A model generated the notes under the pieces. That model ran no database searches and was not told where the DNA came from. It saw only the letters and a program-made list of their open reading frames with translations. From positions 512,001-576,000 of the forward strand of contig CP084167.1 of NCBI GenBank assembly GCA_021513715.1: 64,000 bases of DNA, given 5' to 3'. Of the stretch, positions 4,261-64,000 are shown piece after piece (position 1 is the stretch's first letter; every line of letters starts with the position of its first letter). The translations under genes were made by a program, and so were the position numbers. This DNA comes from Candidatus Heimdallarchaeum endolithica. GTDB lineage: Archaea > Asgardarchaeota > Heimdallarchaeia > Heimdallarchaeales > Heimdallarchaeaceae.

Positions 4261-5307
4261 ATGTTCACAAAAACAAAAATAATTGGTTTGGGAATACTTC
4301 TTTCAATGTTGATAAGCTCTATTGCTGTATCAGCTGAAAGTCAAGGGATTCAATATTCTGAACAGAATAAGCTTGTTACAATAAGTTATGAGGATTTAAC
4401 CCTCATGGTTAATGCTGGAGGTCAAGTACCAAAATTTCATATTATTCAGGAAGACGGACTAGAATTCCAAGTAATGTTCAAGATGCTTGTAGAGTATTAT
4501 GATGCAAACGAAGATGGAGCTTTTCAATACAATGAAACAAACATTGCTCAAACAGATGAACATGGCCGTCCTAGTGCAAGAACAAACATTTTAGCTCTTC
4601 CTAGTGTTATTTGGTCATTTAGTGGTTTTGATTTAGAATATGAAGAAGGAACAGAAAACATAGTTGCAATACACTTTGCTTTCGTCAGTGAAAATATACT
4701 TATTCCATTTTATGCTGATTTTTCGATGGAGATAAAAGCTCATTTCTATTTAGATAATAAAACTATTGACGGATATGAAATTATTGGCGGAAGAGAACTG
4801 AAGTTTGACATTATTATGAACAATTGGCCATGGGAAAAAGATGATACTTATCTTGCTTTAAGATTTGACATAACACCTTTGAAAGATGCTGAAATAAAAG
4901 ATGTTGAAGGAAAACCTGTCGACACAAAGACAAATTCAACAGGTTATGAACACAAAGTCAATAATCAAAATCAAATGAAGAACGCATTTGAATTGGGAAA
5001 TGCTACAGATAAAGGATTCTTTGCTTACGCTAACAAAGCTAACTATTCTTATCAAAATGAATATCAACAAGGAACAGTAAATTGCTCTTATTCAACTAAT
5101 GGAGACGATACTATTCAAACATATTTGAGCTTTGAACATTTCGATGAAGAAGTTGTTTATGATCCTTCATTAGGTGTGGTTTCTGATACAGAAGAAGGAA
5201 ATAATGAAGAAGATACAACTGGATTAGGAAACTTGGAAATATTAACACTCAGCGCACTTTCAATATCTGTTATTACTGCAGTAGCTATTTTGAGAAAGAA
5301 AAGATAA
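4261..5307 (+). CDS. secreted cell-surface protein with C-terminal membrane anchor
   Basis: Signal peptide, acidic beta-rich body, C-terminal TM helix followed by RKKR; RBS GGTGA upstream. Confidence 0.75.
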   Translation: MFTKTKIIGLGILLSMLISSIAVSAESQGIQYSEQNKLVTISYEDLTLMVNAGGQVPKFHIIQEDGLEFQVMFKMLVEYYDANEDGAFQYNETNIAQTDEHGRPSARTNILALPSVIWSFSGFDLEYEEGTENIVAIHFAFVSENILIPFYADFSMEIKAHFYLDNKTIDGYEIIGGRELKFDIIMNNWPWEKDDTYLALRFDITPLKDAEIKDVEGKPVDTKTNSTGYEHKVNNQNQMKNAFELGNATDKGFFAYANKANYSYQNEYQQGTVNCSYSTNGDDTIQTYLSFEHFDEEVVYDPSLGVVSDTEEGNNEEDTTGLGNLEILTLSALSISVITAVAILRKKR

Positions 5308-5309
5308 AA

Positions 5310-5339
5310 TATTCATTTTTCCTTTTTTTCATTTTTTTA
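5310..5339 (+). terminator. T-rich archaeal-type terminator
   Basis: Successive T tracts just after the stop codon, between convergent genes. Confidence 0.4.
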
Positions 5340-5437
5340 GTAATTATCAAAAATATTAGGAAATTGAAAGGTTTCTAACACTTAATTTTATATTACATTA
5401 AAAAAAAAGAAAAAAAGTTTTAGTTTAACCACTTAAA

Positions 5438-8400
5438 CTAATATTTCTTTCCAAGTACATCAATTTCTTCAAGAGTTTCAGTAACTCTTCTTTTTTTTTG
5501 TATTTTTCTGAAGATAATTTCAAATAAAACAATTGAAAAAATGAAAACTATCCAAACTGTAATTTTAAGGAAAATATCACTTCTTACAAAAATAGTAAAG
5601 TTTGAATCATAAGTCAATGGGTCAAAATTGTTCATTACTTCTTCGTAATCACTCATTCCATCTCCATCTGTGTCAGGATCTTTAGGATTTGTACTATAAA
5701 TGATTACTTCTTCTGCGTCATCTAACCCATCATCATCCGAATCAGTATCAAACGGGTTTGTACCATAAACCATTACTTCTAAGAAATCATTTAAATTATC
5801 ACCATCTGTGTCTTCATTTAGAGGATTAGTATGATAATCATGTACTTCACTTCCATCTAGTAATCCATCGTTATCAGAATCACAATCCAAGGGGTCAGTA
5901 GAATACATGAAAATTTCGAGATTATCGGATAAACCATCCAAATCTGAATCTTTTAATGTAGGATTTGTTCCATAAACAAGTACTTCTACTCCATCATCTA
6001 TTCCATCATTATCCGTATCATCATTTGTAGGATCTGTTCCGTAAGCGTATATTTCATCACCATCCAATAATCCATCAAAGTCAGTATCATTATTCCTTGG
6101 ATCAGTATTGTTTTCAAATTCGTGAATATTATATAATTCATCATTATCAAAGTCAACATAGGCATCAATTGGATTAGTAACATCTAAACCATAGTAATAT
6201 TCCCAGTAATTTGTCATTCCATCGCTATCTAAATCTCCATCAGCATCGCTTGGATCATCAGGATCTAATCCTACACTAACTTCCCAGTAATCAGGCATTT
6301 TATCGTTATCACTATCTCTTACTAATTTTATGATAAAAGCATCAATATATCCTTCTAAAGTGGAATTTAAAGAATTTTTTAAAAGAAGATCACTACTCTC
6401 TGTACTCCCTACTATACAGATAGAACCATCATTATCTACTGCTATATCTCTACCTACATCTTCTTCTCTTCCACCAAAATATGTGCTAAAAATTAAATCT
6501 GTTCCACTTTTATTTAACATTGAAACAAAAATGTCAGAATTATAAGTAGGATTTCTTTCTTCAATTGCGTTCTTAATTGGAAAATCATTGCTCCATGTTC
6601 CACCAGTTAAATAGACATTCTGATCATTATCTACTGTTATTGACAAACAAGTATCATTTGATGAACCACCTAAAAATGTACTATATATTATATTATCCGC
6701 TGTTGAACTTATTTTTGTTAAAAATATGTCAGAATATCCATTTAGTGTGTCATCATAAGCATTTTTAGTTGGAAAGTCAGCACTGGTAGTGTATCCTGCC
6801 ACATAAATGTTATCTTGGCTATCTAAAGTAATTGAATAAACGTTTTCTAAATCTTCTCCACCCAAAAATGTACTATGAATTAATTCTGTTCCTGTGTTAG
6901 ATAATTTTAGAATAAAAATGTCAAAGTTACCACTTATTGTAAAAGCTAAAGCATTCTTGATTGGAAAATCAGTACTGTTTGTTATTCCAGCTATGTAAAC
7001 ATCTCCATTATCGTTAACAACAATATCCTGCCCCATTTCGAAATCTGAACTACCAATAAAAGTAGAATAAACAATGTCTCTTCCTGTAAAGTTAAATTTA
7101 GTAATAAAAACATCATAATTTCCATTTGAAGAATTATCATAAGCATTTTTTGTTGGAAAGTCAGTACTATTTGTAACACCAGTAATATATACAAAGCCAT
7201 CACTATCAATAGCTATTCCCCTGGCATAATCATTATACTTTCCTCCTAAATAAGTGCTATAGATTAACCCATTTCCTGTAGAGTTAATATAGGATAAATA
7301 AACATCAAAAAAGCTTCCACCACCATAAGTAGAATTAAAAGCATTTTTAGTTGGAAAATCATCACTTCTTGTAGTCCCAGTAATGAAAACAGAACCATTA
7401 GAGAAAACTTTACCATTTGCAAAGTATTCAGCATCACTTCCCCCTATTATTGTAGTGAAAATAGGTTCAAGAGTTTCTCCATCCAGTTTAGTAACAAAAG
7501 CATCATAATCATCATCTGAGATATTTCCAAAAGCAAAGTTGTTGAATAAAGAAGTGCTCATAGTATCTCCAAAAATGTATATATTTCCATCATTTCCTAT
7601 TTCTATCTTGCGTCCATAATCAAAAACATCTCCGCTTAAATAAGAACTAAAATCTACTAAATAAGGATCAATAATCAATTTTTTTGCTGTATCATATTGT
7701 TCAATATTAAAATTATAACAGTTATCATCAAGACTAAAATAAGCGGGGATAATTTTTCCCTCTTGAAAAACTTTTAAGTTTCTATCGTTAAAAATTCTAT
7801 ATTCTGTATTTCCGATTCTTGAGATTCCAACTATATTAGTTTTATCTTCTTGTTTTAAGTAAAACTTTGAATCTGATGATAGTTGAACCTTAATAACTGA
7901 AGGATCAACATTTGGTTCAACAATAAATTCGTACTTCAGAAATGAACCTGTAAAATAGTATCTTAAAGATATTCCTGGGTATATATCTTCATATATTATT
8001 TCTTGATAACAGCTTATTTGAGTAATTACTTTATCTTTGTAAAAAAAGTTGGAAAAGTAATTTGCTACTCCTTTTGCTTGTGGTACAACGATATTTGAAT
8101 CGGGAAAAGAGATAGTAATTAAGAAAAATTTATTATTTTCTTCTTTATTCGGTTTAAGATTCTGAATAAAGTGGACCTTAGATTCTCCAAAGTAAACATT
8201 TGTTAGAGGAGATTGAGCATAATAAAAAACTGTCTTGTCAAATATTTGCCCTTTATTTTGCATAAAAAAGAATTTAGAATTGTAATCAAGGGCATAATTC
8301 TCTAAATATTCGTCAAAAATACCGTAAAAATTATTTTTTGCCTTATTTTGCTGTTGTGAATATTTTATACTATAAGAGCCAACCAAAGTATTATTTTTGA

Positions 8401-8494
8401 CATAAAATCCAGAAAAACGGCTTACACTTACAAGAAAAATAAAAAACAAAGTAACAAAAAATAAAAAAATTCCTCTGCTTTTAATTCCATTCAT
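5438..8494 (-). CDS. surface protein: SBBP beta-propeller repeats + DxDxDG (TSP3-like) Ca-binding stalk + C-terminal TM
   Basis: F-x-x-NKGQ N-domain and LIIDP. About 7 repeats of YSTYLGG..D...IA.D..G..YITG.T.S.DFPT.NA. Many DTDxDGLxDxxE repeats. C-terminal TM and basic tail. Confidence 0.88.
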   Translation of the reverse strand: MNGIKSRGIFLFFVTLFFIFLVSVSRFSGFYVKNNTLVGSYSIKYSQQQNKAKNNFYGIFDEYLENYALDYNSKFFFMQNKGQIFDKTVFYYAQSPLTNVYFGESKVHFIQNLKPNKEENNKFFLITISFPDSNIVVPQAKGVANYFSNFFYKDKVITQISCYQEIIYEDIYPGISLRYYFTGSFLKYEFIVEPNVDPSVIKVQLSSDSKFYLKQEDKTNIVGISRIGNTEYRIFNDRNLKVFQEGKIIPAYFSLDDNCYNFNIEQYDTAKKLIIDPYLVDFSSYLSGDVFDYGRKIEIGNDGNIYIFGDTMSTSLFNNFAFGNISDDDYDAFVTKLDGETLEPIFTTIIGGSDAEYFANGKVFSNGSVFITGTTRSDDFPTKNAFNSTYGGGSFFDVYLSYINSTGNGLIYSTYLGGKYNDYARGIAIDSDGFVYITGVTNSTDFPTKNAYDNSSNGNYDVFITKFNFTGRDIVYSTFIGSSDFEMGQDIVVNDNGDVYIAGITNSTDFPIKNALAFTISGNFDIFILKLSNTGTELIHSTFLGGEDLENVYSITLDSQDNIYVAGYTTSADFPTKNAYDDTLNGYSDIFLTKISSTADNIIYSTFLGGSSNDTCLSITVDNDQNVYLTGGTWSNDFPIKNAIEERNPTYNSDIFVSMLNKSGTDLIFSTYFGGREEDVGRDIAVDNDGSICIVGSTESSDLLLKNSLNSTLEGYIDAFIIKLVRDSDNDKMPDYWEVSVGLDPDDPSDADGDLDSDGMTNYWEYYYGLDVTNPIDAYVDFDNDELYNIHEFENNTDPRNNDTDFDGLLDGDEIYAYGTDPTNDDTDNDGIDDGVEVLVYGTNPTLKDSDLDGLSDNLEIFMYSTDPLDCDSDNDGLLDGSEVHDYHTNPLNEDTDGDNLNDFLEVMVYGTNPFDTDSDDDGLDDAEEVIIYSTNPKDPDTDGDGMSDYEEVMNNFDPLTYDSNFTIFVRSDIFLKITVWIVFIFSIVLFEIIFRKIQKKRRVTETLEEIDVLGKKY

Positions 8495-8818
8495 TTTTTC
8501 AAATAATTTAAATCAAAAAACATTATATAAATATTATCAAATGATTTTGTATAATTATTTATTTAAAATTTAAAAATACGCTTAAATAGATTGTAGAACA
8601 AAAAGAAAAATTTTTGCCAATTTCTTTTTTGCAAGTTTTTATTCTAAAGGAGATAAATAAAAATTATGTGTAATAACACAGATAATATTAGGCTAATTAT
8701 CAGCTTTTTTATACAAAATCGAAATAAAGGTCTAGAACGCTAAAAAAAATATTAGAATGAGGATAATAGTAAAAAGCTAACAACAATTTTTTTAAGTAAA
8801 AATATGAATTAAAAAATA

Positions 8819-9640
8819 ATGGGCAATTTGAATGATTCAATAAAGGAAATGAAACTTTTTTCAAATCAAACAAGAAGGGATTTGCTTAAACTTCTTGGAG
8901 AATCAGGAGGATTGTCTTTTACAAATATTAAAGAAGAATTAGGATTAACAGATGGAAGATTATATTTTCATTTAAAGAAATTAGAGGGGTATATAGAGAA
9001 AGATGCACAGAATAACTATAAACTAACTTCTGAAGGTAAGAAAACTTATGACACTTTATTTTTCAGTCATATGGTTGAAAAGAAAAAATTTGAAGAAGAT
9101 GTCTCTTCAAAATCACTAAACAAGTTGTTTCCTGAAGATATCGTTTATTATTTTATTGGAACGAAAGTAAGAAGTATGATTGAACTTAACTCATTATTAA
9201 TAATTTTGTGTTGGTTCTTTGGAGTAACTAATAGCTTCTTTAGTCCTATAGAAACAATAATTATAGGTGGAGCTATATTAAATTTTGTAATCAATCTCGT
9301 TCATTGGTACTTTTATTGCATTCTTATCTATTTCATCTTGAAAGTCTTTAAGAAAGAAGTAAACTTTATAGAGTTAGTTATTACAACCATCACAGGAATT
9401 ATTCCATATTTCATTTATTTAATTACGAAAGGCATTCTACAGTTGTTAAATATTGAAATTGTTGGGTGGGTTAATGTAGTTATGATTATTATATTCATCA
9501 TTTGTAAAATGTGGTCCTCATTAATAATTGCTCAAGGGTTAAGCATTGTAGCCAAGATACATACTTCACAAGCTATACTTACAGTAATATCTTTGATCAT
9601 TATTGATTACATGTACATGTTTATCACTTTATCAATTTGA
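8819..9640 (+). CDS. ArsR-like winged-HTH fused to multi-pass (Yip1-like) membrane domain
   Basis: FSNQTRRDLLKLL..LSFTNIKEELGLTDGRLYFHLKKL followed by about 5 hydrophobic helices. Confidence 0.7.
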   Translation: MGNLNDSIKEMKLFSNQTRRDLLKLLGESGGLSFTNIKEELGLTDGRLYFHLKKLEGYIEKDAQNNYKLTSEGKKTYDTLFFSHMVEKKKFEEDVSSKSLNKLFPEDIVYYFIGTKVRSMIELNSLLIILCWFFGVTNSFFSPIETIIIGGAILNFVINLVHWYFYCILIYFILKVFKKEVNFIELVITTITGIIPYFIYLITKGILQLLNIEIVGWVNVVMIIIFIICKMWSSLIIAQGLSIVAKIHTSQAILTVISLIIIDYMYMFITLSI

Positions 9641-9721
9641 TGTAAGAACTTTAGAAAAATAAATAAGAAGAATAAAAAAAAAGAAGGAGAGAAAATAAAT
9701 AGAGAAAAAGAGCTGAGAAAA

Positions 9722-10390
9722 ATGAATAAAAGAAATTTGATAACTCTATTCCTACTTTCAATTATAACTAGTTCTATAGTTGTTTCTGGGATTCTAACTT
9801 TTAGAAATTATGATGAAATAGTCGAGGATTTGAATAGCATCGACATTTTTCCTACAGAACCAATATATAATGGAGATGATGAATTAAAAACTGGAATATT
9901 GGAGTTATTCTACCTCAGCTCTGTTTCTGAAAGTCAAGTTTCAAAAAGTATGAATAGCTATGGCCCCCCAAATGTAACTGAAACTTTACAAAATGTGTGG
10001 ATAAACATTACTAAAATTGAACTTGTTGGCAATGACTCAAAGTTAATTAACTTATTTGATGATCATGTTCAGTTAGACCTTAAAAAAGCAGAAGAAGGGA
10101 CGATTTTCTTATTTTCGTTTAACATCACTATAGGATTCTATTCATCGATAAAAATCTATTATGAGAATACTTTAGTAACTAACAGCACTGAAGGGGTAGA
10201 AAAAACTTATGTTATTCAAGGTTCAACTTTTCTAGTTGTGCCTTTCAGACAAAATAAATCTTCTAGTAATCAATCTAATCTGGAAATAACGAAAAATGCT
10301 AAAAAAAACATATATTTAGACTTTAATCTTAATCTCATATCCTTTACTCAATCAGCAGTACTAACCATTCAAGCTTTTTTAAACCTTTAA
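9722..10390 (+). CDS. secreted DUF4382-like protein
   Basis: Signal/anchor helix; NVWINITKIEL, G.YS.IKI and terminal LDFN patterns typical of DUF4382. Confidence 0.5.
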   Translation: MNKRNLITLFLLSIITSSIVVSGILTFRNYDEIVEDLNSIDIFPTEPIYNGDDELKTGILELFYLSSVSESQVSKSMNSYGPPNVTETLQNVWINITKIELVGNDSKLINLFDDHVQLDLKKAEEGTIFLFSFNITIGFYSSIKIYYENTLVTNSTEGVEKTYVIQGSTFLVVPFRQNKSSSNQSNLEITKNAKKNIYLDFNLNLISFTQSAVLTIQAFLNL

Positions 10391-44813: not shown

Positions 44814-46331
44814 ATGAATTTACTAAAGACTATTGTAAAAATAACTCCAGTTCCTATATTGCGTAAAGTTAAATCGTTTTCATTAAAAAAACCCAGCAGA
44901 ATTAAATTCCTATTTAAAGTATCTAATGAAGAAGCTTTAATCGAAATAGGAAAAAAATTAGCATTTAACAATTTCAAAAAAGTATCCAAGAATACACTCG
45001 CTTACAAGAAGTTCTTGGAAAGTAATGGAGTCAATGCAAAGAAAGTTAATAGCTTTAAGAAATTTATTGAAATTGTTCCCACTACAGATAAGAACAACTA
45101 TATTGCCAAATACCCAATGAACGAACTATGTATAAACGGAGATCTTTCACCTCTAGCTGTAATAGATAGAAGTTCAGGATATTCGGGAAAATCCATTTAC
45201 TTTCCAATATCCAAAAAAGAAAACCTTTTTGATGAACTAGTCATGGCAAATTGGTTTAAAACACAATTCAATATCACAACCAAAGATTTACTCATAAATT
45301 GCTTCTTTTTAGGATCATGGGTAGCAGGACTAAAAATAGGTAACTCTGCTAGAATGATAGGAACTTCAATAAATACAGGACCTCGTTTAGATGAAATAGT
45401 AGAAACAATATTCGATCTAGATAAATACTATGAAAGAATAATTATTTTATCCTATCCTCCCTTTGCAATGATGCTTGTTTACAAGTTAATAGAAGCAGGA
45501 TATGATTTCAAAGGTAAAAACTTCTTGTTTTTGGTAGGAGGAGAAGGATATAACCTGGAGTTCAAACAAAAATTACAAGAACTTACAAAAAAAAGTAGCG
45601 AAATTTTTGGAGCTTTTGGTAGCACTGAAACAGGAATAAGAATAGGAAATGAAACAGTCGATACACACATGCTTAAGCAAATGGCAGCATCAAACAAAGA
45701 ATTCTGCAAGAAAATGTTTGGAAAAGAATTCCCACCAAATATCTTTCAATATGATCCAACAAACGTTCATTTATTCACAAAAAAATATAAAAACGGAAAA
45801 GATGCCCTGATTTTCACCTCAGCTTCTAAAAGAGCAGTTCCAGTAATTAAATACAACTTAAAAGATGAGGGAGGAGTACTAACACAAAAGGAAGTAAAGA
45901 AAATAATAAAAGAAGTATTTAACATGGACTTCAATTTTAAACTACCTTTACCAATCTTTTATGTGTATGGAAGAGTGGATGATACAATATCAATAGCAAG
46001 TGCAATATTCTATCCTCATCAAATAAAATCAGGACTGTTGGAGTTCATGGATAATGTAATAGATTACAGATTGGAATCAAAAACAACAGATACAGGAGTA
46101 ATTTATCCAGCTGTTTATGTAGCAGTAAAAGAAAAAAGAAAAGCTTCCAAAAAGAAAATAGAAGAAAGTATTTACAAAACGTTATTAAAATACAGTAGCA
46201 CCTACTCAGAATCAATAAAAGAAGGAATAGCAGATAGACCTATAGTTTTCCTATACACAGAAAAAGACTTCCCCTTTGAACTAAACGAAATAACAAAAGA
46301 TCAAGTAAAAGAAAAGCATTTAGTAAATTAA
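44814..46331 (+). CDS. phenylacetate-CoA ligase (PaaK)-like adenylate-forming enzyme
   Basis: RSSGYSGK, SYPPF, GGE, FGSTE, PVIKYNLKDEG, VYGRVDD. Confidence 0.78.
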   Translation: MNLLKTIVKITPVPILRKVKSFSLKKPSRIKFLFKVSNEEALIEIGKKLAFNNFKKVSKNTLAYKKFLESNGVNAKKVNSFKKFIEIVPTTDKNNYIAKYPMNELCINGDLSPLAVIDRSSGYSGKSIYFPISKKENLFDELVMANWFKTQFNITTKDLLINCFFLGSWVAGLKIGNSARMIGTSINTGPRLDEIVETIFDLDKYYERIIILSYPPFAMMLVYKLIEAGYDFKGKNFLFLVGGEGYNLEFKQKLQELTKKSSEIFGAFGSTETGIRIGNETVDTHMLKQMAASNKEFCKKMFGKEFPPNIFQYDPTNVHLFTKKYKNGKDALIFTSASKRAVPVIKYNLKDEGGVLTQKEVKKIIKEVFNMDFNFKLPLPIFYVYGRVDDTISIASAIFYPHQIKSGLLEFMDNVIDYRLESKTTDTGVIYPAVYVAVKEKRKASKKKIEESIYKTLLKYSSTYSESIKEGIADRPIVFLYTEKDFPFELNEITKDQVKEKHLVN

Positions 46332-46497: not shown

Positions 46498-49400
46498 TTA
46501 TTCTTTCTTCTTACCTTCACCTATAATTTCCCAATCACGATATTGGCTAAGTAAACGGTCAATCTCATTATCAATATCAATAGTTTCTTTTCTTACAAAA
46601 GATTGCTCAAGTTCATAATATTCACCAATATCAGGGTTAGCTTGTAGGATATCTTTGAGATACTCTTCAACAACAGATTTAGAAAGACCGCTAAGTTCGG
46701 AAATTCGTTGCAAAGTAACAGAAATGTTAGGTTTGAATTGGTTAAGCAAATTAATGAGAGTTTTATATTCTTCTTCTCTCTTCAATGCTTTCATGTACTC
46801 AGATTTAGTTTTATAACCTTGAGCAGAGATTTCCTCCCACTCAGACTTAGTTTTAAATCCTAACTTCATTGCTGTAAACATTTCTTTGATAGAAGAAAAA
46901 CCAAAAGAAGAAGCTCTTTTACGAAGATAAAGTCTAATTCCTATAAAAGTCAAAAAAGCAACAGCACCAGTAACAATGACAGCACCTGTAACTATTGAAA
47001 TAATTGTGATCATTCTTTTAACTTTCAATTTATTTTCTAAATTCGATTTAGGATTAAGGGGATTAAGACCATTTTCTATTTCCTTACCATCTTTATCTCC
47101 ATCTCCATCAGTGTCAGAATTGTTAGGGTCTGTTCCATAAATCTTTACTTCTTCATAATCAGTTAATCCATCACTATCAGAATCACTACTTGTGGGGTTA
47201 GTAAAATATTCTTTAATCTCTTCATAATCAGTTAATCCATCTTCATCTGTATCAGTACTATTAGCAAACGTACCAACATTAAATTCTTCAAGATTGGTTA
47301 AACCATCACCGTCTAAATCAGAGTTGGAATCATCTGTTAATGGGTCTAATCCAGAATGAACTTCATAACCATCAGGCATACCATCTTCGTCAGTGTCTGA
47401 GTTGTTAGCGAAAGTACCAAGAGTATATTCCTCAAAATTAGATAAGTTATCGTTATCGAAATCAGAATTATTATCATTAACAATTGCGTTTGTGCCTGTT
47501 TGAACTTCCCACAAATCATCCATCAAGTCACCATCTGTATCAGTATTATTAGCAAACGTACCAACATTAAATTCTTCAAGATTGGTTAAACCATCACCGT
47601 CTAAATCAGAGTTGGAATCATCTGTTAATGGGTCTAATCCAGAATGAACTTCATAACCATCAGGCATACCATCTTCGTCAGTGTCTGAAACCAAAGGAAC
47701 AGTACCATAAGTGTTAACCTCTTCTCCATCAGTTAAACCATCACTGTCAGTGTCAGAAACCAAAGGATCAGTACCATAAGTGTTAACCTCTTCTCCATCA
47801 GTTAAACCATCACTGTCAGTGTCAGAAGTAGTAGGATCAGTTTTATAATTTACTACTTCATTAAAATCATCCAATCCATCACTGTCAGTATCAACCTTAC
47901 TCATATCTGTCCCTAAAATCTCCTCCTCATGATCAAACAACCCATCACTGTCTGTATCTAAATATGTTCCAGTTCTTTGATTGGTAACTGAATCAGTATA
48001 GAGAGGAGCATATCCAAGACCAAAAGAATTCCAAACAGACACACCATTGTTGTATACAGCAATTATTTCTAGTTCTGAATCATTATCTATATCAGCAACA
48101 GCTAAAGAAGAAAAAGAAACATCACTAATTGTTTTTTTTGGCCAACCAGGAATAACAGTACCATCAATATTCCAAATCGTTCCTCCCCCTCCATACCCTG
48201 CAATTACTTCTAAGGATGAATCGCCATCAACATCAGCAACTGCTAAAGAAGAAACGGAACCAAGCGCTGTTTTTGGCCAATCAGGAATAACAGCACCATT
48301 ACTATTCCAAATAGTAACTCCACCTTCATACCCTGCAATTACTTCTAAGGATGAATCATTATCAATATCAGCAACAGCTAAAGAATAAACAGAACCACTT
48401 GTTGTTTTTGGCCAACCAGGAACAACAGTACCATCACTATTCCAAATAGTGACTCCACCATTTAAAGTTTCTCCATCAAAATATCCTGCAATTACTTCTA
48501 AGGATGAATCATTATCAATATCAGCAACAGCTAAAGAATAAACAGAACCATTTGCTGTTTTTGGCCAATCAGGAATAACAGTACCGTCACTATTCCAAAT
48601 AGTGACTCTACTATCATCCCCGGCAATTATTTCTAGGGATGAATCGCCATCAACATCAGCAACAGCTAAAGAATAAGTATATCCACTTGTTGTTTTTGGC
48701 CAACCAAGAATAACAGCACCATTACTATTCCAAATAGTGACTCCACCTTCATACCCTGCAATTACTTCTAAGGATGAATCATTATCAATATCAGCAACAG
48801 CTAAAGAATAAACAGAACCACTTGTTGTTTTTGGCCAACCAGGAACAACAGTACCATCACTATTCCAAATAACTACTTCACTATTATACCCTGTAAGTAT
48901 TTCTAGGGATGAATCGTCATCAACATCAGCAACAGCTAAAGATCTAACAGAACCACTTGTTGTTTTTGGCCAACCAGGAACAACAGTACCATCACTATTC
49001 CAAATAGTGACTCCACCATCGTTGTAATCACCGTACCCTGCAAGTATTTCTAAAGATGAATCGTCATCAACATCAGCAACAGCTAAAGAATAAACATAAT
49101 CACTTGTTGTTTTTGGCCACGAAGATAAAATTGAATAATAATTAATAAAAAAGTTATAACGAGTGTTGGTGGTATCATAGTTAATTGATACCCAATTAAA
49201 AACATTAGTGCTGCTAATTTGAGCAGCTAAAATATAACCAGAATAATCGATATAGTATAAATATTGACCTTGAATAGTAATTATTCCATTTGTATGCAAA
49301 TAACCCGATAATAATTGTTCATTCGTGGATGAGGAATAAAAGTGCTTTGCATAAACATTTGAAGAGGAACAATATAGTAATTCCCAATCATAATCACTAT

Positions 49401-50643
49401 CCACATCTGTAATTATAGGTTCTTCCTGAATATTTAGCCCTAAAGAACTACTATAATCATTTAGTATCTCTCCGGTAAAAGAAAAACTTTTTTGTTCTCC
49501 GAGTGTTGATAAAGAGATTATTTCATACTCTCTATCCCAATTAATATCAACAATTATTGGACCTAACCACTCGGAATTAGTTGAATCAGTAAGCCAAGAA
49601 TGAATAGTAGTACCATTATTTGATAAAAGATAAAGATTTCTTCCTGCAGGGCAAACAATGTCTATTTTACTGTCTTTGTTGATATCTGCAACAGCAAGAG
49701 GATGAGTAATAGGATCAGTTAAATCTTTGGGAAAATTTGAGATAATGTCTCCATTTCCTTTCCACGCGTAAACTTTTCCATCGGTACTACCTACAATAAC
49801 TTCATTGGAACCATCATTGTCTACATCAGCTAAAACTGGTGCTACTATTACTTCTCCTCCTGTTGTTTTAGGCCAACCAGCTAAAAGATTTCCACTTCCA
49901 TCAAATGCATAAACTTTTGAACTGTTAGATCCAACCACTATCTCATTTTTATTGTCTCCATTAATATCTCCGACTGCTAATGTTTCTTCTACTGGCCCCT
50001 CACAATTGACTGGCCAACCTGGTATAATAGAACCATTACCGTAAAATGCGTAAACCGACCCATTAGCTGCCCCTATAATTATTTCTTCAGTTGCACTATT
50101 TCCATCTATATTAGCTAACATTGGTATGGATGTTAAGGCAACACCTATGCTTTTTCCACCTACCCAATTTGAAGATTCTGTACCATCTGTCTCGTAAACT
50201 CTTATTATACCATTTAATGTTCCCACGACAATTTCATAATTTCCATCTCCGTCTATATCTCCTGTTCCAGGCCCTCCTTTTAACTGTCCCCCTACATATA
50301 TTGGCCAACTACCAAAAGAATTAAGAGATTGAGAGATTTTTTTACCTGAAAAATTGTTATCTAAAAGTTCAGAACGGGAAGAAGTTGTTTTGATCTCTAT
50401 GTCGTTGTTCGCTTCTTCAACTCTTTGTAAATCTGTGTGATAATCATTATTTTGACTTACATTATTTTGACTTACATTATTTTGACTTACATTATTTTGT
50501 TGTGAATCTAAAATGATATTATTAAAATCTTTCATCACTAGAGAATTTGTAGTCATTGAACTTGTAATTATAATTAGTAATGCTACTACCATTCCTAAAT
50601 ATTTTGATTTCCCTCTAAAACTTTTTTTCATTCGTTTCATCAT
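46498..50643 (-). CDS. large surface protein: FG-GAP/VCBS propeller repeats + DxDxDG stalk + TM + cytoplasmic winged-helix-like tail
   Basis: Signal peptide; repeats GWPKTTSG.V.SLAVADVD.DSSLEI; DTDSDGLTDGEE repeats; TM; GFKTKSE repeats; VTLQRISELSGLSKSVVEEYL...GEY; terminal EIDRLLSQYRDWE. Confidence 0.88.
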   Translation of the reverse strand: MMKRMKKSFRGKSKYLGMVVALLIIITSSMTTNSLVMKDFNNIILDSQQNNVSQNNVSQNNVSQNNDYHTDLQRVEEANNDIEIKTTSSRSELLDNNFSGKKISQSLNSFGSWPIYVGGQLKGGPGTGDIDGDGNYEIVVGTLNGIIRVYETDGTESSNWVGGKSIGVALTSIPMLANIDGNSATEEIIIGAANGSVYAFYGNGSIIPGWPVNCEGPVEETLAVGDINGDNKNEIVVGSNSSKVYAFDGSGNLLAGWPKTTGGEVIVAPVLADVDNDGSNEVIVGSTDGKVYAWKGNGDIISNFPKDLTDPITHPLAVADINKDSKIDIVCPAGRNLYLLSNNGTTIHSWLTDSTNSEWLGPIIVDINWDREYEIISLSTLGEQKSFSFTGEILNDYSSSLGLNIQEEPIITDVDSDYDWELLYCSSSNVYAKHFYSSSTNEQLLSGYLHTNGIITIQGQYLYYIDYSGYILAAQISSTNVFNWVSINYDTTNTRYNFFINYYSILSSWPKTTSDYVYSLAVADVDDDSSLEILAGYGDYNDGGVTIWNSDGTVVPGWPKTTSGSVRSLAVADVDDDSSLEILTGYNSEVVIWNSDGTVVPGWPKTTSGSVYSLAVADIDNDSSLEVIAGYEGGVTIWNSNGAVILGWPKTTSGYTYSLAVADVDGDSSLEIIAGDDSRVTIWNSDGTVIPDWPKTANGSVYSLAVADIDNDSSLEVIAGYFDGETLNGGVTIWNSDGTVVPGWPKTTSGSVYSLAVADIDNDSSLEVIAGYEGGVTIWNSNGAVIPDWPKTALGSVSSLAVADVDGDSSLEVIAGYGGGGTIWNIDGTVIPGWPKKTISDVSFSSLAVADIDNDSELEIIAVYNNGVSVWNSFGLGYAPLYTDSVTNQRTGTYLDTDSDGLFDHEEEILGTDMSKVDTDSDGLDDFNEVVNYKTDPTTSDTDSDGLTDGEEVNTYGTDPLVSDTDSDGLTDGEEVNTYGTVPLVSDTDEDGMPDGYEVHSGLDPLTDDSNSDLDGDGLTNLEEFNVGTFANNTDTDGDLMDDLWEVQTGTNAIVNDNNSDFDNDNLSNFEEYTLGTFANNSDTDEDGMPDGYEVHSGLDPLTDDSNSDLDGDGLTNLEEFNVGTFANSTDTDEDGLTDYEEIKEYFTNPTSSDSDSDGLTDYEEVKIYGTDPNNSDTDGDGDKDGKEIENGLNPLNPKSNLENKLKVKRMITIISIVTGAVIVTGAVAFLTFIGIRLYLRKRASSFGFSSIKEMFTAMKLGFKTKSEWEEISAQGYKTKSEYMKALKREEEYKTLINLLNQFKPNISVTLQRISELSGLSKSVVEEYLKDILQANPDIGEYYELEQSFVRKETIDIDNEIDRLLSQYRDWEIIGEGKKKE
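47260..47830. repeat. near-identical intragenic DNA duplications in the DxDxDG stalk (about 140-bp block repeated at 288-bp spacing; 66-bp tandem pair)
   Basis: TTAGCAAACGTACCAAC...GTCAGTGTCTGA occurs at about 47260 and about 47548. CAGTACCATAAGTGTTAACCTC...GTCAGTGTCAGAA occurs twice at about 47700-47830. Confidence 0.8.
48060..49120. repeat. about 8 tandem 120-140-bp FG-GAP-coding repeats with high nucleotide identity
   Basis: Recurrent ATCAGCAACAGCTAAAGAATAAACAGAACCACTTGTTGTTTTTGGCCAACCAGG. Confidence 0.85.
50445..50499. repeat. 15-bp perfect tandem repeat x3.7 encoding (NNVSQ)n
   Basis: CATTATTTTGACTTA repeated, just after the signal peptide. Confidence 0.9.
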
Positions 50644-52166: not shown

Positions 52167-52895
52167 ATGATTGCACCAACTATTGATTCGTTATTGTCTG
52201 CAGCTTTAGGATATTTTTTTGGTTCAATACCTTTATCCTTTATAATTGTCAAAGTTTTTCTTGATGGATTAGATATCCGTACGGTTGGATCAAAAAATGT
52301 CGGTGGAAGAAATGTTATTAGATCTTTCAAGTATAAAGGAAAATCGAATAATGTTGCTTATACTATGGGGTTAATTGTAGCTATCTTTGATATATTAAAA
52401 GGATACTTTGCTATGTGGTTATCACAATACCTATCTTACAATTTTGGAAATAAAGATCCCTGGAGTATTTGTTTTGCAGGTATTTTTGCTATTCTTGGAC
52501 ATAATTGGCCAATATGGTTATTAAGTCATGGCGGAAGAGGAGTAGCAACAACTCTTGGTAACTTAATGTTTTTCAATCCTATTTTCTTTTTAATATGGCT
52601 AGCAACGTTTTTCTTACTCAGTTTTCCTCTGATGTATTCAGCTATTGTTTACATTACTAGTTTTATAGTTATGGGAGTTATTCTATACTTCTGGCCCTGG
52701 TATGTAAGTCCGATGGTAGCAGAACTGAAAAACGACCCAAATCTTGGTTTTATTTCAATGATAATGCTTTTTGGTATAACTCTTGTTGTTCTTTCTCGTC
52801 AAAAATCTAATTTCATGAAAATTAAGAATGGCGAAGCAAAAAGAATGAAACTGTGGAAGATATTCCAAGGAAAGGCAGATGAAGCCCTGAAATAA
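52167..52895 (+). CDS. plsY: PlsY-family glycerol-3-phosphate acyltransferase-like protein
   Basis: GYFFGSIP, DIR..GSKNVGGRNV.R, DILKG, GHNWPIW...GGRGVAT; motif 3 reads RQKSN, with Gln in place of His. Confidence 0.85.
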   Translation: MIAPTIDSLLSAALGYFFGSIPLSFIIVKVFLDGLDIRTVGSKNVGGRNVIRSFKYKGKSNNVAYTMGLIVAIFDILKGYFAMWLSQYLSYNFGNKDPWSICFAGIFAILGHNWPIWLLSHGGRGVATTLGNLMFFNPIFFLIWLATFFLLSFPLMYSAIVYITSFIVMGVILYFWPWYVSPMVAELKNDPNLGFISMIMLFGITLVVLSRQKSNFMKIKNGEAKRMKLWKIFQGKADEALK

Positions 52896-52935
52896 ATTCA
52901 TTTTTTCTTTTTCTATCTTTTTAACAATTTTTTTA

Positions 52936-53679
52936 TTATATTTGTATTAATTCTGAAGATTCTATTTCCAGCGAAAGAGTCTCTTTTTCATTTTGTATTC
53001 TTAAAAGTCCATTATCCTCAATTCCTTCTACTGTATAGTCTTGATTTTTGTAGATAATATTATTTTTGCATAATATATCGTAAGAATTAAATTCTTTTAA
53101 GATTTCTTCAAAATTATTTCTTAAAACTTTGTTAATATAGTTTTTAATTTGCTTATACAATTCTTTTGTTAATTTCTCATTATCTGCTTTTATTTTCAAG
53201 GATTCATTTATTGAAATAGCTATAGAATTGACTGGAGAGTCTAAAGAAAGAACTTTGTTATTTGTATTTATTCCTATTCCAACGAGTAGAAAATTACAAT
53301 TTGTATCTTTCACTGTATCAATTAAAATTCCGCCTAACTTTCTTTTTTCTAGAATTATATCATTTGGCCATTTAATTTTAACAGGTATAGACAGAATTGT
53401 TTCTATTGCTTTTCTTACTCCTAAAGCAATAGAATAATGAAGAAAAGCATATTGCTTTTGATTTATTTCTTCTTTTTTACAAAAAACAAACGTTCCCCAC
53501 CAACCTCCTTTTGGAGAAAACCATTTATTCTGTTTTCTTCCAATACTTGCAGATTGTTCCTCTGCTATTATTAACAAATCTTCATTTTTTGCTAATTCTA
53601 AATAAGACAAAGCTACATTTTGAGTGGAAGGAACAGATTGAAAATGAATGATTTTCAAGGAAAAGGATTCTTGAACCAT
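52936..53679 (-). CDS. birA: biotin--protein ligase (no N-terminal HTH)
   Basis: V.STQ, AEEQ...GR...WFSPKGG, IKWPNDI, KLGGIL, VGIGIN, GI...G.L. Confidence 0.92.
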   Translation of the reverse strand: MVQESFSLKIIHFQSVPSTQNVALSYLELAKNEDLLIIAEEQSASIGRKQNKWFSPKGGWWGTFVFCKKEEINQKQYAFLHYSIALGVRKAIETILSIPVKIKWPNDIILEKRKLGGILIDTVKDTNCNFLLVGIGINTNNKVLSLDSPVNSIAISINESLKIKADNEKLTKELYKQIKNYINKVLRNNFEEILKEFNSYDILCKNNIIYKNQDYTVEGIEDNGLLRIQNEKETLSLEIESSELIQI

Positions 53680-53792
53680 TATTTTCGTCGAAAAACACTT
53701 TTATTTAAACTTTTTTTTGTTTTATCAAGATAAAATTATTTAATCATAAAAACAAATTGGGTTTTTAAAAGACCTTTTTTTCTTTAAACTTA

Positions 53793-55367
53793 ATGGCTCG
53801 TATTACTCATATTGGACATGATAAAGGAAATTTGGAAGAAAAAAGACAAACAATACTTTCACTAAGAGAAATTTCGCTAAAAGGTGGTGGAGAAGAAAAA
53901 ATAGCTAGTCAACACAAAAAAGGAAAGCTTACAGCAAGGGAGAGAATAGAGTTATTAGTTGACGAAAATTCTTTTTGCGAAATAGATCAAATAAGAAAAT
54001 CTCAGCATTCTGAATTAGAAATGGAGAAAATAGAAGGAGACGGGGTAGTAACAGGTTATGCAACTATTAATGGTAGACGAGTCTTTATTTATAGTCAAGA
54101 TTTTACAGTTTTGGGAGGAAGTTTAGGAAAAACTCATGCAAAAAAAATATGTAAAGTTATGGATCATGCTCTACAGAGTGGGTGTCCTATAATAGGCATA
54201 CTTGACTCAGGAGGAGCAAGAATTCAAGAAGGAATAGATTCTCTAGCAGGATATGGCGAAATTTTTTATAGGAATGTAATGAGCTCAGGAGTAGTTCCCC
54301 AAGTTTCAATTATTTTAGGTCCCTGTGCTGGAGGAGCTGTCTATTCTCCTGCACTAACTGATTTTATTATTATGAATCAAATTAATTCATTTATGTTTGT
54401 TACTGGTCCTCAAGTTGTTAAGACAGTTACAGGGGAAGATGTTTCATTCTATGATTTAGGTGGAAGTGAGGTACATGGTTCTCTTAGTGGAGTTAGTCAT
54501 TTAGTAGGAGAAGATGAAGAGGAAACAATAAATTTAGCTAAAAAACTTTTATCTTACCTCCCATCGAACAATTTAGATGACCCTCCACAAGAAATAGATG
54601 ATATAGAAGAAAATGGTCAAGATATTCTTTCTGATATTATTCCAGAGCAGGAAAACGAGCCTTATGATATGAAAAAAGTAGTTGAAACAGTTTTAGACCA
54701 AGACAGTTTCTTTGAATTACAAGAAAGTTGGGCAAAAAATATTATTGTTGGCTTTGGGAGGTTAGATGGTTTAACTGTTGGTATTATTGCAAACCAACCT
54801 TTATTCCTTGGAGGTGCTATAGAATATAATGCTGCAGATAAAGCAGCTAGATTTATTCGTTTTTGTGATTCATTTAACATCCCCATAATTACTTTCGTTG
54901 ATGTACCTGGATTTATGCCAGGGGTAAAACAAGAGCATGAAGGAATAATTCGTCATGGAGCTAAAATGCTTTTTGCTTATTCAGAAGCTACTGTCCCAAA
55001 ACTTGCAGTAATAACAAGAAAAGCTTATGGAGGAGCTTATATTGTTATGAGCTCAAAGCATTTAGGAGCTGATATTAATTTTGCTTGGCCTACAGCAGAA
55101 ATAGCTGTCATGGGGGCAGAGGGAGCTTGTAATATTATTTATAGAAAAGAACTGAAAAAAGCTGAAAATCCAGAACAAGCTTTGCAAGATTTTGTTGCAA
55201 AATACAAAAAACAATTCAGCAATCCTATTCGAGCAGCTGAAAAAGGATATATTGACAAAGTTATTTTGCCTGAAGAAACAAGGATTGAACTTTCTAATGC
55301 CTTGAAATTTTTACAAAATAAAAGAATAGATATCCCGAAAAGAAAACACGGGAATATTCCACTTTAA
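53793..55367 (+). CDS. pccB: acyl-CoA carboxylase carboxyltransferase subunit (PccB/MmdA family)
   Basis: GKLTARERI, GDGVVTG, QDFTVLGGSLG, DSGGARIQEG, GPCAGGAVY, DVPGFMPG, RKAYGGAY, KHGNIPL. Substrate specificity not determinable. Confidence 0.9.
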   Translation: MARITHIGHDKGNLEEKRQTILSLREISLKGGGEEKIASQHKKGKLTARERIELLVDENSFCEIDQIRKSQHSELEMEKIEGDGVVTGYATINGRRVFIYSQDFTVLGGSLGKTHAKKICKVMDHALQSGCPIIGILDSGGARIQEGIDSLAGYGEIFYRNVMSSGVVPQVSIILGPCAGGAVYSPALTDFIIMNQINSFMFVTGPQVVKTVTGEDVSFYDLGGSEVHGSLSGVSHLVGEDEEETINLAKKLLSYLPSNNLDDPPQEIDDIEENGQDILSDIIPEQENEPYDMKKVVETVLDQDSFFELQESWAKNIIVGFGRLDGLTVGIIANQPLFLGGAIEYNAADKAARFIRFCDSFNIPIITFVDVPGFMPGVKQEHEGIIRHGAKMLFAYSEATVPKLAVITRKAYGGAYIVMSSKHLGADINFAWPTAEIAVMGAEGACNIIYRKELKKAENPEQALQDFVAKYKKQFSNPIRAAEKGYIDKVILPEETRIELSNALKFLQNKRIDIPKRKHGNIPL

Positions 55368-55374
55368 AATTATT

Positions 55375-55382
55375 AAGAGGAG
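55375..55382 (+). promoter_or_regulatory. ribosome-binding site of the megasynthase gene
   Basis: AAGAGGAG 6 nt before ATG 55389, in the 21-bp gap after the carboxyltransferase gene. Confidence 0.6.
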
Positions 55383-55388
55383 AATTTT

Positions 55389-58300
55389 ATGAAAACTCAA
55401 AAAGAACTAAAAAATGAACTACAAATTAAATATCCAATTTTCGGATATAATCCTATTGGACTTACTGATCCCACGTTTGCTATTGAAATCTCCAGACTTG
55501 GAGGAGTGGGATTATTTAACACTATTGGACTTGAACAAGAAGAACTAACTAAGATTCTTGATCAATGCGAACTTAATCTGCCCACACAACTATGGGGCGT
55601 AAGGATTAACGATCTTTCTCACATTAAATGGATAAATCATGAACGAAGTATTCCAATCGTCATCCTACCGGAGAAACCTACAAGATTACAACTGGATAAA
55701 CTGCGTAAAATAAGTAAATTTATTGTCTCTGAAGTTTTATTTGTTGAAGAAGCAAAAAGTCATCTTGAATGGTCAGATTTCTTTTTAGTTAAAGGTATTG
55801 AAGCAGGAGGAAAAGTAGGTACAAAAGCTTCTTTTATTCAGATTCAAGAGTTTTATGAAACTGGATGGCCTTTTATCATTCAAGGAGGAATTGGAGCTTT
55901 TAATATTAGTTCTGCTCTAATAGGAGGAGCAATAGGAGTAGTTTTTGAGGGACAATTATACCAATTTCCTGAATGTCCTCTTTCTGAAGAAGTGAAAAAA
56001 TATCTTGCTTCTTTAGGTGAAAATGATTCTTTTATTATCAATGAAAGTGGTAAAGAAGGTTATAGAATTTCTGGAAAATTAGCAAATAAGGCTATTAGAG
56101 AGATAAAGCAATTAGAAGAAGAATCAAGTGAGGAAAAAATACTTGATAGGATCACTGAATTTGAAAAACCACATGAACAATTTGGTTTTAAGAGTCAAAA
56201 CATAAAACACGCATTTTTACCACTAGGTAATGATGTTTTCTTCTCCACATTCTTCAAAAAAAGATTTGGAAATTTAGCAAATTTTGTGAAACAAGCTCTT
56301 AAGATAGCTGATGAACAAATAGAAATTGCTCTAAAAAATTGGCCTTTTGCAAAAGGATCTCCTTTATCCAATTTTCTTGGGACAAAATATCCTATTATCC
56401 AGGGGCCTATGGCTAATGTTTCTGATAATGTAGATTTTGCTGTTAATGTAGCGAAAAGTGGAGCTCTACCTTTCTTAGCTTTAGGTGGACTACTAAAAGA
56501 AGAAACAGAGGAGCTGTTTGATAAAGTTAGAAAAAGTGAACTTTTGAAATATTCCTACGGCTGTGGAATTATAGGTTTAGAAGCAGTTAAACAAAGGAGA
56601 GAAGAGCATCTATCTTTAATGAGAGAACTTAAACCCCCTTTTGCTTTAATTGCTGCAGGAACAGTTAATTTAGCAAAACAAGTACAAGAGATGGGTTTTA
56701 AGACTTTATTACATACTCCTGCTCTATCAATGTTCAAAGATTCTATCAAAAATGGGATAGATCTACAGATTTTAGAAGGGAGTGAATGTGGAGGTCACAT
56801 TGGTCTCCTTTCATCCTTTATTTTATGGGAAAGCATATTGGAATTTTTAGATGAAAATAGAGAACAGATAGAAAAACCTTTGAAAATAGTTTTTGCAGGT
56901 GGGATATCTGATGGAACTAGTTCTGCGATGTTAGCAACCATGATCGCTAAACATCTAGATATAATAGAACCAGCAATACAAATGGGTACATCCTATTTAT
57001 TTACAGAAGAAATTTTAGAAACAAAAGCTTTAACTGGATTTTATCAAGAGCTTCTTCTTAATGCAAATTACACCAGAATAATAGGTTCAACAGTAAATAC
57101 TCGGGCACGAGCTGCACCTTCTCCTTTTGTAGATCAAACAATTAAAAGAGAAAGAGAGAGAATTAGACAAAAAATACCAATAAAGGAAAGGAAAGAACTT
57201 TATGAGAAAGATAATCTAGGTGCTTTAAGAATAGCAGCTAAAGCTGAAAAATGGAATAACAATCATATTCCTGGTACAGGAACTACCCAATTTATAAAAA
57301 TCGATGAAAAGGAACAAAAAAACTTTGGATGTTTTATGGCAGGAGAAGTAATAGCTAAAAAACGAAGTATATACAAGATAGAAGATTTACATTATGATAT
57401 TTCAATAATTGGAAAGGAAATTCTAGAAAAACAGTCAACTTCTATTGCTGAATATTTAGTTCCAAATGAAAAACTGGAAGTTTATTCTAAGGAACAAAGT
57501 CCTCTTGTTATAGATAGTAGTAATAAAATTGCTATTGTAGGAATAGGCAGTTTCTTTCCTGATGCTCCAAACACTGAAAAGTTCTGGGAAAATATTATTA
57601 ACAAACATTATTCTATAACAGAAGTTCCCATTGAAAGATGGGATCCTAAATATTATTATGATGAAGATCGAACAGCTCCAGATAAAACTTATACTAAAAT
57701 AGGAGCGTTTGTAAAAGAATTCAAATTTAAACCAATTCAATTCAAGATTCCTCCTAAAGTAGCTGAAAAGATGGATGAAGTACAGAAATGGTCATTAGTT
57801 GCTGCAAAAGAAGCTTTAGAAGATGCTGGTATTCCAACAGATGGAAAGAAGCGTCTACCTATAGGAGTAATTGTAGGAAATGCTTTAGGTGGAGAGAATC
57901 AGAGATTAACTAACAGAAGGTTACACTATCCTGAAATTGAAGAACAACTAAGAGTTTTGTTAAGTTCGAAATTATCTGATGAAGAAGTAGAAAAACTTGT
58001 TTCTTCTTTTAGAAAAGAATATCTCAGTAAATACGCAGAAATCACAGAGGATACTATGCCTGGAGAATTGTCTAATATAGTTGCAGGAAGAATAGCAAAT
58101 ATTTTCAATTTATCTGGTAAATCAATGACTACAGATGCTGCTTGCGCATCTTCTCTAGCTGCTCTAGATATAGCTGTAAAAAGTTTGTTGAACAATGATT
58201 TTGAAACAATTCTTGTGGGTGGAGCAGATAGATCAATGGATGTTTCTTCTTATGTTAAATTTAGTAAGATCGGTGCTCTTTCTGCAACTGGTTCTCGACC

Positions 58301-64000: not shown

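Follow-up and report, generated by a model that had tools for sequence, protein, structure and literature searches.

The type I fatty acid synthases (FAS I) of fungi, corynebacteria and animals are iterative multidomain enzymes that depend on an acyl carrier protein (ACP). The fungal enzyme contains an FMN-dependent enoyl reductase (ER) and a fused C-terminal phosphopantetheinyl transferase (PPTase). In Firmicutes, Fak (FakA/FakB) and PlsY form an acyl-phosphate pathway, and Fak is classically a scavenging system. Archaea are not known to build fatty-acid-containing membranes.

FAS I and a complete FAS II both seem to be lacking from archaea, almost all of which also have no ACP; Sulfolobus makes fatty acids de novo by an ACP-independent, CoA-based and thiolase-driven pathway (10.1101/2024.07.05.601840). 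The Type R/S secondary lipid synthases are described from bacteria only, with an uncharacterised product and no mention of archaea (Shulse & Allen 2011, PMC3098273), and for Desulfobacterium a related Type S cluster was suggested to be the core FAS (PMC3098273). Type R has a single PfaA homologue with the order KS-MAT-second KS-like-ACP(3-6)-KR, a PPTase of its own and, in some cases, ACC genes (PMC3098273). Archaeol bilayers are predicted for Heimdallarchaeia (PMC12042123), and the origin of bacterial-type membranes in eukaryotes has been called an enigma (PMC12872458). A full-text literature search, with subscription journals largely outside it, found no description of such a synthase in Asgard archaea, and the lipid passages of 2026 reviews make no mention of one.

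The DNA analysed here (the window, 64,000 nucleotides) comprises positions 512001-576000 of the closed genome of Candidatus Heimdallarchaeum endolithica (G000), a single contig of 3,326,783 bp with 30.8% GC. Features beyond its end are given in extended coordinates, that is, G000 position minus 512000. An earlier note on the window had described adjacent genes for PlsY, a biotin-protein ligase (BirA), an acyl-CoA carboxyltransferase (CT) and a megasynthase; all four lie where it placed them (Table 1), Pfam agrees on the families, and the gaps were re-measured at 21 bp between the CT and synthase genes and 113 bp between birA and the CT gene. Biotin carboxylase (BC), biotin carrier (BCCP) and PPTase were correctly reported as outside the window. 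All three are found less than 5 kb beyond its end, together with a dehydratase (DH) and a candidate thioesterase, when the downstream region is inspected as the note had recommended, and its proviso that the genome might have no PPTase or biotin carrier does not apply. Two other genes occur nearby: one for a 505-aa PaaK/F390-synthetase-like adenylating enzyme (window 44814-46331, plus strand), which the loci read show in this genus alone, and one for a 1381-aa FG-GAP/TSP3-repeat protein (46498-50643, minus strand), the internal DNA repeat number of which differs in Ca. Heimdallarchaeum aukensis.

Table 1. Genes and synthase domains of the cluster, in window coordinates or, where marked, extended coordinates (beyond the window)
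Feature	Position (strand)	Identification
Atypical PlsY paralog, 242 aa	52167..52895 (+)	PF02660 E 9e-34; motifs GSKN, GGRG, RQKSN
BirA, biotin-protein ligase, 247 aa	52936..53679 (-)	PF03099 E 5e-20; TIGR00121 139 bits, cut-off 83
Acyl-CoA carboxyltransferase (CT), PCC-beta/AccD type, 524 aa	53793..55367 (+)	PF01039 E 1e-189
Type I megasynthase, 3515 aa	55389..64000 (+), to extended 65936 = G000:567389-577936	1936 bp beyond window
Tandem FabK-type (FMN TIM-barrel) enoyl reductase x2	55389..57458 (+)	TIGR03151 E 7e-29, two stretches
KS1	57522..58943 (+)	PF00109/PF02801; triad C919/H1053/H1094
Acyltransferase (AT)	58980..59885 (+)	PF00698, TIGR00128 E 2e-73; GHS (S1296), R1321, AFH (H1402)
KS2	60156..61868 (+)	Triad C1860/H2008/H2048 intact; ~20% identical to KS1
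Three ACP domains	61926..62801 (+)	PF00550 x3; attachment residues Ser2217, Thr2323, Ser2434
Ketoreductase (KR)	63507..64000 (+), ends extended 64181	PF08659 E 6e-31
DH, PKS-type double-hotdog	Extended 64371-65243 (+)	H3035; E3198
Sfp-type PPTase domain	Extended 65271-65933 (+)	PF01648
Alpha/beta hydrolase, candidate thioesterase	Extended 65972-66733 (+)	PF12146 E 2e-14; PDB match
BCCP	Extended 66755-67237 (+)	PF00364 E 4e-16
Biotin carboxylase (BC), convergent	Extended 67302-68807 (-)	NF006367 623.7 bits, cut-off 597

The synthase has the domain order ER(FabK)x2-KS-AT-KS-ACP3-KR-DH-PPTase, of which Pfam recognises KS, AT, ACP, KR and NMO in the portion inside the window. The two ER halves are 25% identical to each other and match FabK structures (E 4e-12); the catalytic His is absent from the first domain and kept in the second (H470), where it is found in all 53 homologs aligned across the ER motif. 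The KS1 triad is invariant in 99 of 99 homologs. Because the KS2 triad is also intact, KS2 is not a Cys-less chain-length factor (CLF). The GHS and AFH residues of the AT correspond to the malonyl-type motif and are invariant in homologs. The KR has its GxxxG inside the window and its catalytic Tyr, invariant in homologs, just beyond it (Y2900). The DH is identified by a profile search against the PDB (E 2e-18) and by a model (pLDDT 92.8) with the CurF DH as top Foldseek match; it carries Glu (E3198) at a position that is usually Asp. PF01648 has no match in the genome other than the PPTase domain. Among 99 full-length homologs there is no variation in either KS triad, the AT Ser and AFH, the KR Tyr or the DH His; about 95 of them retain the PPTase motifs. 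The parts of a functional type I FAS (KS, malonyl-AT, ACP, KR, DH, ER and PPTase) are all present with their catalytic residues, and the enzyme very probably makes reduced acyl chains.

The attachment position of the ACP domains aligns to the Ser of solved ACPs. In a comparison of window 62247-62474 with the homologs, Thr is the sole residue at this position in the motif-located ACPs of 164 of the 171 long homologs. This copy and one close homolog, P0003, have two Ser-type ACPs out of three. Some relatives have KS2-like stand-alone genes of about 500-590 aa away from the synthase (G002:C1:136538-138184, G005:C12:45924-47606, G006:C197, G031:C171, G038:C190 and G036:C8); there are none in this genome. 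In H. aukensis (G001; L045:12999-20000, L046:1-17000) the synthase is broken into two ORFs by a perfect tandem duplication of 1993 bp, and a 2702-bp near-perfect duplication repeats the 3' end of the synthase, the hydrolase and BCCP, followed by CRISPR-associated-looking genes with the BC gene not adjacent. These duplications are either an assembly artefact or an element insertion.

Among described enzymes, the order KS-AT-KS-ACP3-KR with a PPTase fused at the C-terminus places the synthase beside Type R in architecture and PPTase; the KS tree described below does not include Koribacter, Solibacter, Elusimicrobium and Roseiflexus, from which that type is named. It differs from Type R in its archaeal host, in a second KS that has a full triad and is not a CLF, in the fusion of ER, DH and PPTase in one chain, and in the clustering with a full ACC, BirA and hydrolase. 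The PUFA synthase PfaABCDE shares KS-MAT, tandem ACPs and KR (PfaA), an FMN-type ER (PfaD) and an Sfp-type PPTase (PfaE). The enzyme here, however, is a single polypeptide in which a FabA-type DH/isomerase pair and a Cys-less CLF are missing: as to PfaC, there is one PKS-type double-hotdog DH only, and KS2 keeps its Cys. The PfaA profile TIGR02813 scores 969.1 bits, below its cut-off of 1010.1. Assignment as a PUFA synthase is thus excluded, and polyunsaturated products are not predicted. With fungal FAS the synthase has in common the FMN-dependent ER and the fused C-terminal PPTase. It is unlike FAS I in its domain order, its two KS domains and its tandem ACPs; there is no MPT or fused TE, and the PPTase is Sfp-type, not AcpS-type. 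Judged by its domains, the cluster would function as a type I FAS does, and its architecture resembles that of the Type R/S secondary lipid synthases.

The hydrolase, BCCP and BC genes all lie less than 3 kb past the end of the synthase gene, and at 11 loci the hydrolase shows no change in its triad S108-D197-H228. CT matches the PCC-beta/MmdA family (TIGR01117, 755 bits). The cluster contains a complete set for malonyl-CoA supply (BC, BCCP, CT and BirA), each a single-copy gene by self-search, and no carboxylase set, BirA or PPTase other than those of the cluster was found in the genome. At one other locus, L029 (G012:C9), a second BC and CT pair lies between birA and the synthase (5138-10035).

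Since the gene families are bacterial in type, mis-assembled or contaminating bacterial DNA has to be considered as the explanation of the cluster. The genome is closed and has one copy of SSU rRNA, which is archaeal. The nearest named locus is that of H. aukensis PM71, with KS1 96% identical, and the flank is collinear with that species at a nucleotide identity of 92-94%; homologous matches occur in 50 of 61 relatives. Cluster GC is 0.28-0.34 (genome 0.308), synthase GC3 is 0.184 (genome 0.210 +/- 0.041), the codon-usage score of the synthase lies at the 77th percentile, which is ordinary within the genome, and the tetranucleotide distance of the region at the 88th percentile among 199 windows. 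The composition is thus native, in keeping with the earlier note, to which it looked like the rest of the window. The Asgard origin is supported by the rRNA and the congener, and correct assembly by the collinear congener and the relatives. Together with the synteny, KS1 in 57 of 301 Asgard genomes and the single clade formed by the Asgard copies, these data rule out a foreign or mis-assembled fragment, which is a vanishingly improbable account of the cluster.

The KS1-bearing genomes are concentrated in five families of one class: f1 (24/28), f2 (1/1), f3 (10/11), f4 (2/3) and f6 (11/11). Beyond the class KS1 occurs only in f14 (5/68) and f27 (3/7), and it was found in none of the 21 genomes of f5 and neither of the two of f7. 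Labelled homologs and published traits point to f1 as Heimdallarchaeaceae, f3 as Kariarchaeaceae, f6 as Gerdarchaeales and f14 and f27 as Lokiarchaeia; f5 is probably Hodarchaeales. The prevalence of the synthase in the five families is housekeeping-like. At 11 loci outside the genus Heimdallarchaeum, CT is directly upstream of the synthase in all 11, BC and BCCP are present in all 11, the hydrolase in 10 and BirA in 9, so that the core cluster is conserved across families of the Heimdall group and some Lokiarchaeia. At an f3 locus (G036) the synthase has no FabK-type ER, the hydrolase is missing and a FabI gene stands beside the synthase, which points to selection for full reduction.

In a FastTree phylogeny of KS1 and KS2 (189 sequences, 960 columns, midpoint root), one clade of 88 sequences holds all Asgard-labelled ones with support 1.0. 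Lokiarchaeia are nested beside Heimdallarchaeaceae, most Thermoplasmatota form a separate clade, and the outgroups that can be named are bacterial (Polyangiaceae, Spirochaetales, Desulfobacterales). The midpoint-rooted tree suggests a single gain in the Heimdall group and later transfer to Lokiarchaeia. In the one locus read from the Thermoplasmatota clade (L106; P0080-P0120), BioY, BC and BCCP adjoin the synthase. The database labels of P0032, P0035, P0036 and P0062 (Zixibacteria, Bathyarchaeia, Hodarchaeota and Methanobacteriota) conflict with their positions in the tree; the Zixibacteria, Bathyarchaeia and Methanobacteriota labels are probably those of mislabelled bins.

The plsY gene of the window is a different matter. 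It is convergent with birA across a 40-bp gap and hence not co-transcribed with the core. It stands beside the synthase in the two Heimdallarchaeum genomes only and in none of the 11 other loci, and was dismissed as a conserved cluster gene. Its product matches the Aquifex PlsY structure 5xj5 (E 6.5e-14) and scores 124.5 bits with TIGR00023, below the cut-off of 137.2; motif 3 reads RQKSN, with Gln for the His of RHREN in Aquifex PlsY. There are three plsY genes in the genome, a canonical one with RHREN at G000:2094437-2095126 and two His-less ones, the window copy and one at 1584037. Being genus-local and without the motif-3 His, the window copy is not likely to be the first acyltransferase. 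The link to acyl lipids drawn in the earlier note, which had made its proposal depend on a conserved plsY linkage, therefore stands at the level of the genome, through the canonical plsY and Fak genes, and falls at the level of the cluster, where the adjacency proves genus-specific.

The acyl-phosphate source that is absent from the window likely exists elsewhere in the genome in the form of Fak. Nine DegV/FakB genes are present, together with two stand-alone genes for the FakA kinase domain, located at G000:1748522 and 684507, whose ORFs measure 209 and 227 aa. Both of these Dak2 genes are of the YloV/FakA type (NF038248 E 2e-43 and 7e-51, against about 3e-6 for DhaL), which rules out DhaL; no PF13684 match to the C-terminal domain of FakA was found in the genome. 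Searches of the genome found neither PlsX nor PlsC, and single E. coli or Asgard queries, which are less sensitive, gave no match to GpsA, CdsA, FabZ or FabI; GlpK is present. From these genes Fak and the canonical PlsY likely constitute an acyl-phosphate route. As in the Firmicutes, it has FakA-type Dak2 with the PVPDGDTG motif, multiple DegV and PlsY, and fakA, degV and plsY are consecutive on the same strand in two f6 loci read; unlike there, FakA is truncated, PlsX is missing, PlsC is missing in f1, f2 and f6, and His-less PlsY paralogs occur.

PlsY and DegV each occur in all 54 genomes belonging to the five synthase-bearing families, DegV being nearly absent from Asgard genomes outside the class; the FakA kinase domain is present in 54 of 58 and tracks DegV within the class. 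The FakA ORFs consist of the N-terminal domain only in f1 and of the N-terminal and middle domains in most other families, that of f6 covering profile positions 4-316 of 549. PlsC is present in f3, f4 and f5 and was not found in f1, f2 and f6; its absence from Heimdallarchaeum is known from published work. Where PlsC is missing there are mostly 3 (f1) or 4-11 (f6) PlsY copies, as against 1-2 where it is present, and the extra paralogs are without the motif-3 His. About half of f5 has FakA, DegV and PlsY without the synthase. Asgard PlsY and PlsC were already known (PMC6431249, PMC8813620), and were doubted as membrane-lipid genes (PMC6431249), with the acyl source left unnamed. Bacterial PlsY and PlsC accept G1P-type substrates, PlsY taking G1P as well as G3P (PMC13400652). 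The PlsY homologs of f14 are about 400-430 aa, nearly double the normal length, and often in tandem, and in one f1 genome (L072, G009:C62, 5228-7309) G1PDH and degV are divergently adjacent.

The committed step of ether-lipid synthesis shows a complementary pattern. GGGP synthase (GGGPS, PF01884) was detected in 2 of the 54 genomes belonging to synthase-bearing families; among the remaining 246 Asgard genomes it was detected in 221. These presence/absence counts come from mostly incomplete genomes and from kin that are not independent, since the pattern of the Heimdall group may reflect one ancestral event. A divergent GGGPS in this genome was rejected, because a profile built from 13 Heimdall-class GGGPS matches only triosephosphate isomerase (TpiA) and IMP dehydrogenase. 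G1PDH passes its NCBIfam cut-off (413.9 bits, cut-off 413), and two CarS, two prenyl-diphosphate synthases, a single DGGGPS-like protein, encoded at G000:3024082, and a DGGGPL-reductase-like protein are kept, the last two below curated cut-offs. The f6 genomes have no strong G1PDH match, and Gerdarchaeota have been reported without G1PDH (10.1101/858530). The lone canonical GGGPS of f1 (G009) is on a 7.6-kb contig of matching GC, and could therefore not be called contamination. The GGGP synthases of f5 and f7 (L057-L069) are strongly diverged (E 1e-10 to 1e-19 versus about 1e-55 in other Asgard genomes), those of f5 often beside LeuC/LeuD-looking genes.

In Ca. Harpocratesius repetitus FW102 (G230), which carries the synthase, and in G138 of the same genus, neither GGGPS nor DGGGPS is recognisable, and PlsC-family genes number three; G142, also of this genus, retains DGGGPS. 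It was tempting to read Harpocratesius as an independent exchange of GGGPS for the synthase. This was dropped because its synthase-less relatives MK-D1, G290 and G293 are also without GGGPS, and only the additional loss of DGGGPS, in 2 of 3 genomes, is specific to Harpocratesius. Five f14 genomes hold the synthase and GGGPS together. The MK-D1 co-culture yields phytane and ringed biphytanes (PMC11316595), so that absence of GGGPS is not proof of the absence of ether lipids, and by this analogy an unrecognised GGGPS substitute may exist; none was found beside DGGGPS in MK-D1 and L. ossiferum.

From the observed genes, domains, catalytic residues, synteny and distribution we infer a pathway, with its activities, chain length and membrane flux, as follows. 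BirA would biotinylate BCCP, and BC, BCCP and CT would make malonyl-CoA. The C-terminal PPTase would prime the ACPs and the AT load malonyl; the two KS domains would either serve priming and elongation or be specialised for short and for long chain lengths. KR, DH and the FabK-type ER (FabI in trans in f3) would reduce each unit to give a saturated chain, which the hydrolase, as the presumed thioesterase, would release as free acid. The acid would be bound by FakB/DegV, converted to acyl-phosphate with the FakA kinase domain and transferred by PlsY to glycerol phosphate, which G1PDH would supply as G1P or GlpK as G3P. PlsC, where present (f3, f4, Harpocratesius), would fill the second position. 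Elsewhere (f1, f2, f6) an atypical His-less PlsY paralog could serve or, alternatively, the DGGGPS-like prenyltransferase, giving an ester/ether hybrid; CarS would then activate the lipid.

A synthase with its own malonyl-CoA supply, acyl-transfer genes and a missing GGGPS make fatty-acid membranes possible, and it is moderately probable that fatty acids made de novo are built into ester or hybrid glycerolipids of the membrane. A bolder version is put forward tentatively, as possible rather than expected: several Asgard lineages near the eukaryote branch would have crossed the lipid divide, dropping the committed ether step and making their main membrane from synthase fatty acids, as diacyl phospholipids (f3, f4, Harpocratesius) or acyl-ester/isoprenyl-ether hybrids (Heimdallarchaeum, f6), with two-KS synthases and mostly Thr-linked carriers.

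Several observations run counter to this use of the fatty acids in the membrane. The genome retains G1PDH, the DGGGPS-like and reductase-like genes and both CarS, tested enzymes of which type favour DGGGP over phosphatidic acid (PMC9385802); searches found no PlsC, PlsX, GpsA or CdsA; the Fak/PlsY set occurs in f5 without the synthase; FakA is represented by its N-terminal part; and the plsY of the window is neither canonical nor conserved in its position. The retained ether pathway and the Fak/PlsY set of f5 agree with a synthase whose product, as with Pfa-like secondary lipid synthases, is a minor, specialised lipid (very-long-chain, hydroxylated, glycolipid-like, wax or storage) in a cell whose membrane is archaeol-based by way of an unrecognised GGGPS substitute and whose Fak and PlsY handle scavenged acids. 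The same alternative draws on PfaA as the nearest profile and on the Type R/S class of secondary lipids, on two intact KS domains, which suggest two-stage or long-chain elongation, on the precedent of MK-D1, and on those Lokiarchaeia that gained the synthase and kept GGGPS. On the other hand, five families keep the synthase almost without exception and a carboxylase is dedicated to it, as would suit a primary pathway; tailoring genes are not conserved among the loci that were read, and Harpocratesius FW102 and G138 are without DGGGPS too; a minor lipid is accordingly judged unlikely.

Two further destinations for the chains were weighed against glycerolipids. An Asgard association has been reported for sphingolipid metabolism (PMC12872458), and a gene at G000:2042948-2044171 (L118:6949-8172) best matches serine palmitoyltransferase structures (8guh, 3a2b; E 3e-93), which would suit chains going mainly to non-glycerol membrane lipids such as sphingolipid-like or amino-lipids. 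This gene, however, is unlinked to the cluster, reaches 436 bits with NF047600 where the family cut-off is 640, and is also close to Kbl/BioF, and such a product would leave the Fak and PlsY expansion unexplained, which makes it improbable. The affinity of CT, the genome's sole enzyme of its kind, to PCC-beta/MmdA could in turn mean a mainly catabolic propionyl-CoA carboxylase travelling with the synthase, or the synthase could make short or cofactor-bound chains (octanoyl for lipoate, pimeloyl for biotin, protein acylation). The position of CT directly upstream of the synthase at all 11 loci speaks against this, and a 3500-aa multi-ACP enzyme with nine fatty-acid-binding proteins far exceeds the need for cofactors; in either version the explanation is likewise improbable.

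The cluster is a candidate acyl source, and Fak a candidate activation step, for the PlsY and PlsC of Asgard archaea. Its relevance to eukaryogenesis, raised in the earlier note, is indirect: f5, probably the family closest to eukaryotes, is without the synthase in the genomes searched, the domain order is unlike that of animal and fungal FAS, and an origin of eukaryotic FAS from the Asgard synthase would not follow even if the glycerolipid pathway is correct. The missing GGGPS makes a sharp prediction, testable because enrichment cultures of such organisms exist. Should it prove true, gain and loss of genes can alter archaeal membrane chemistry with no need of an endosymbiont.
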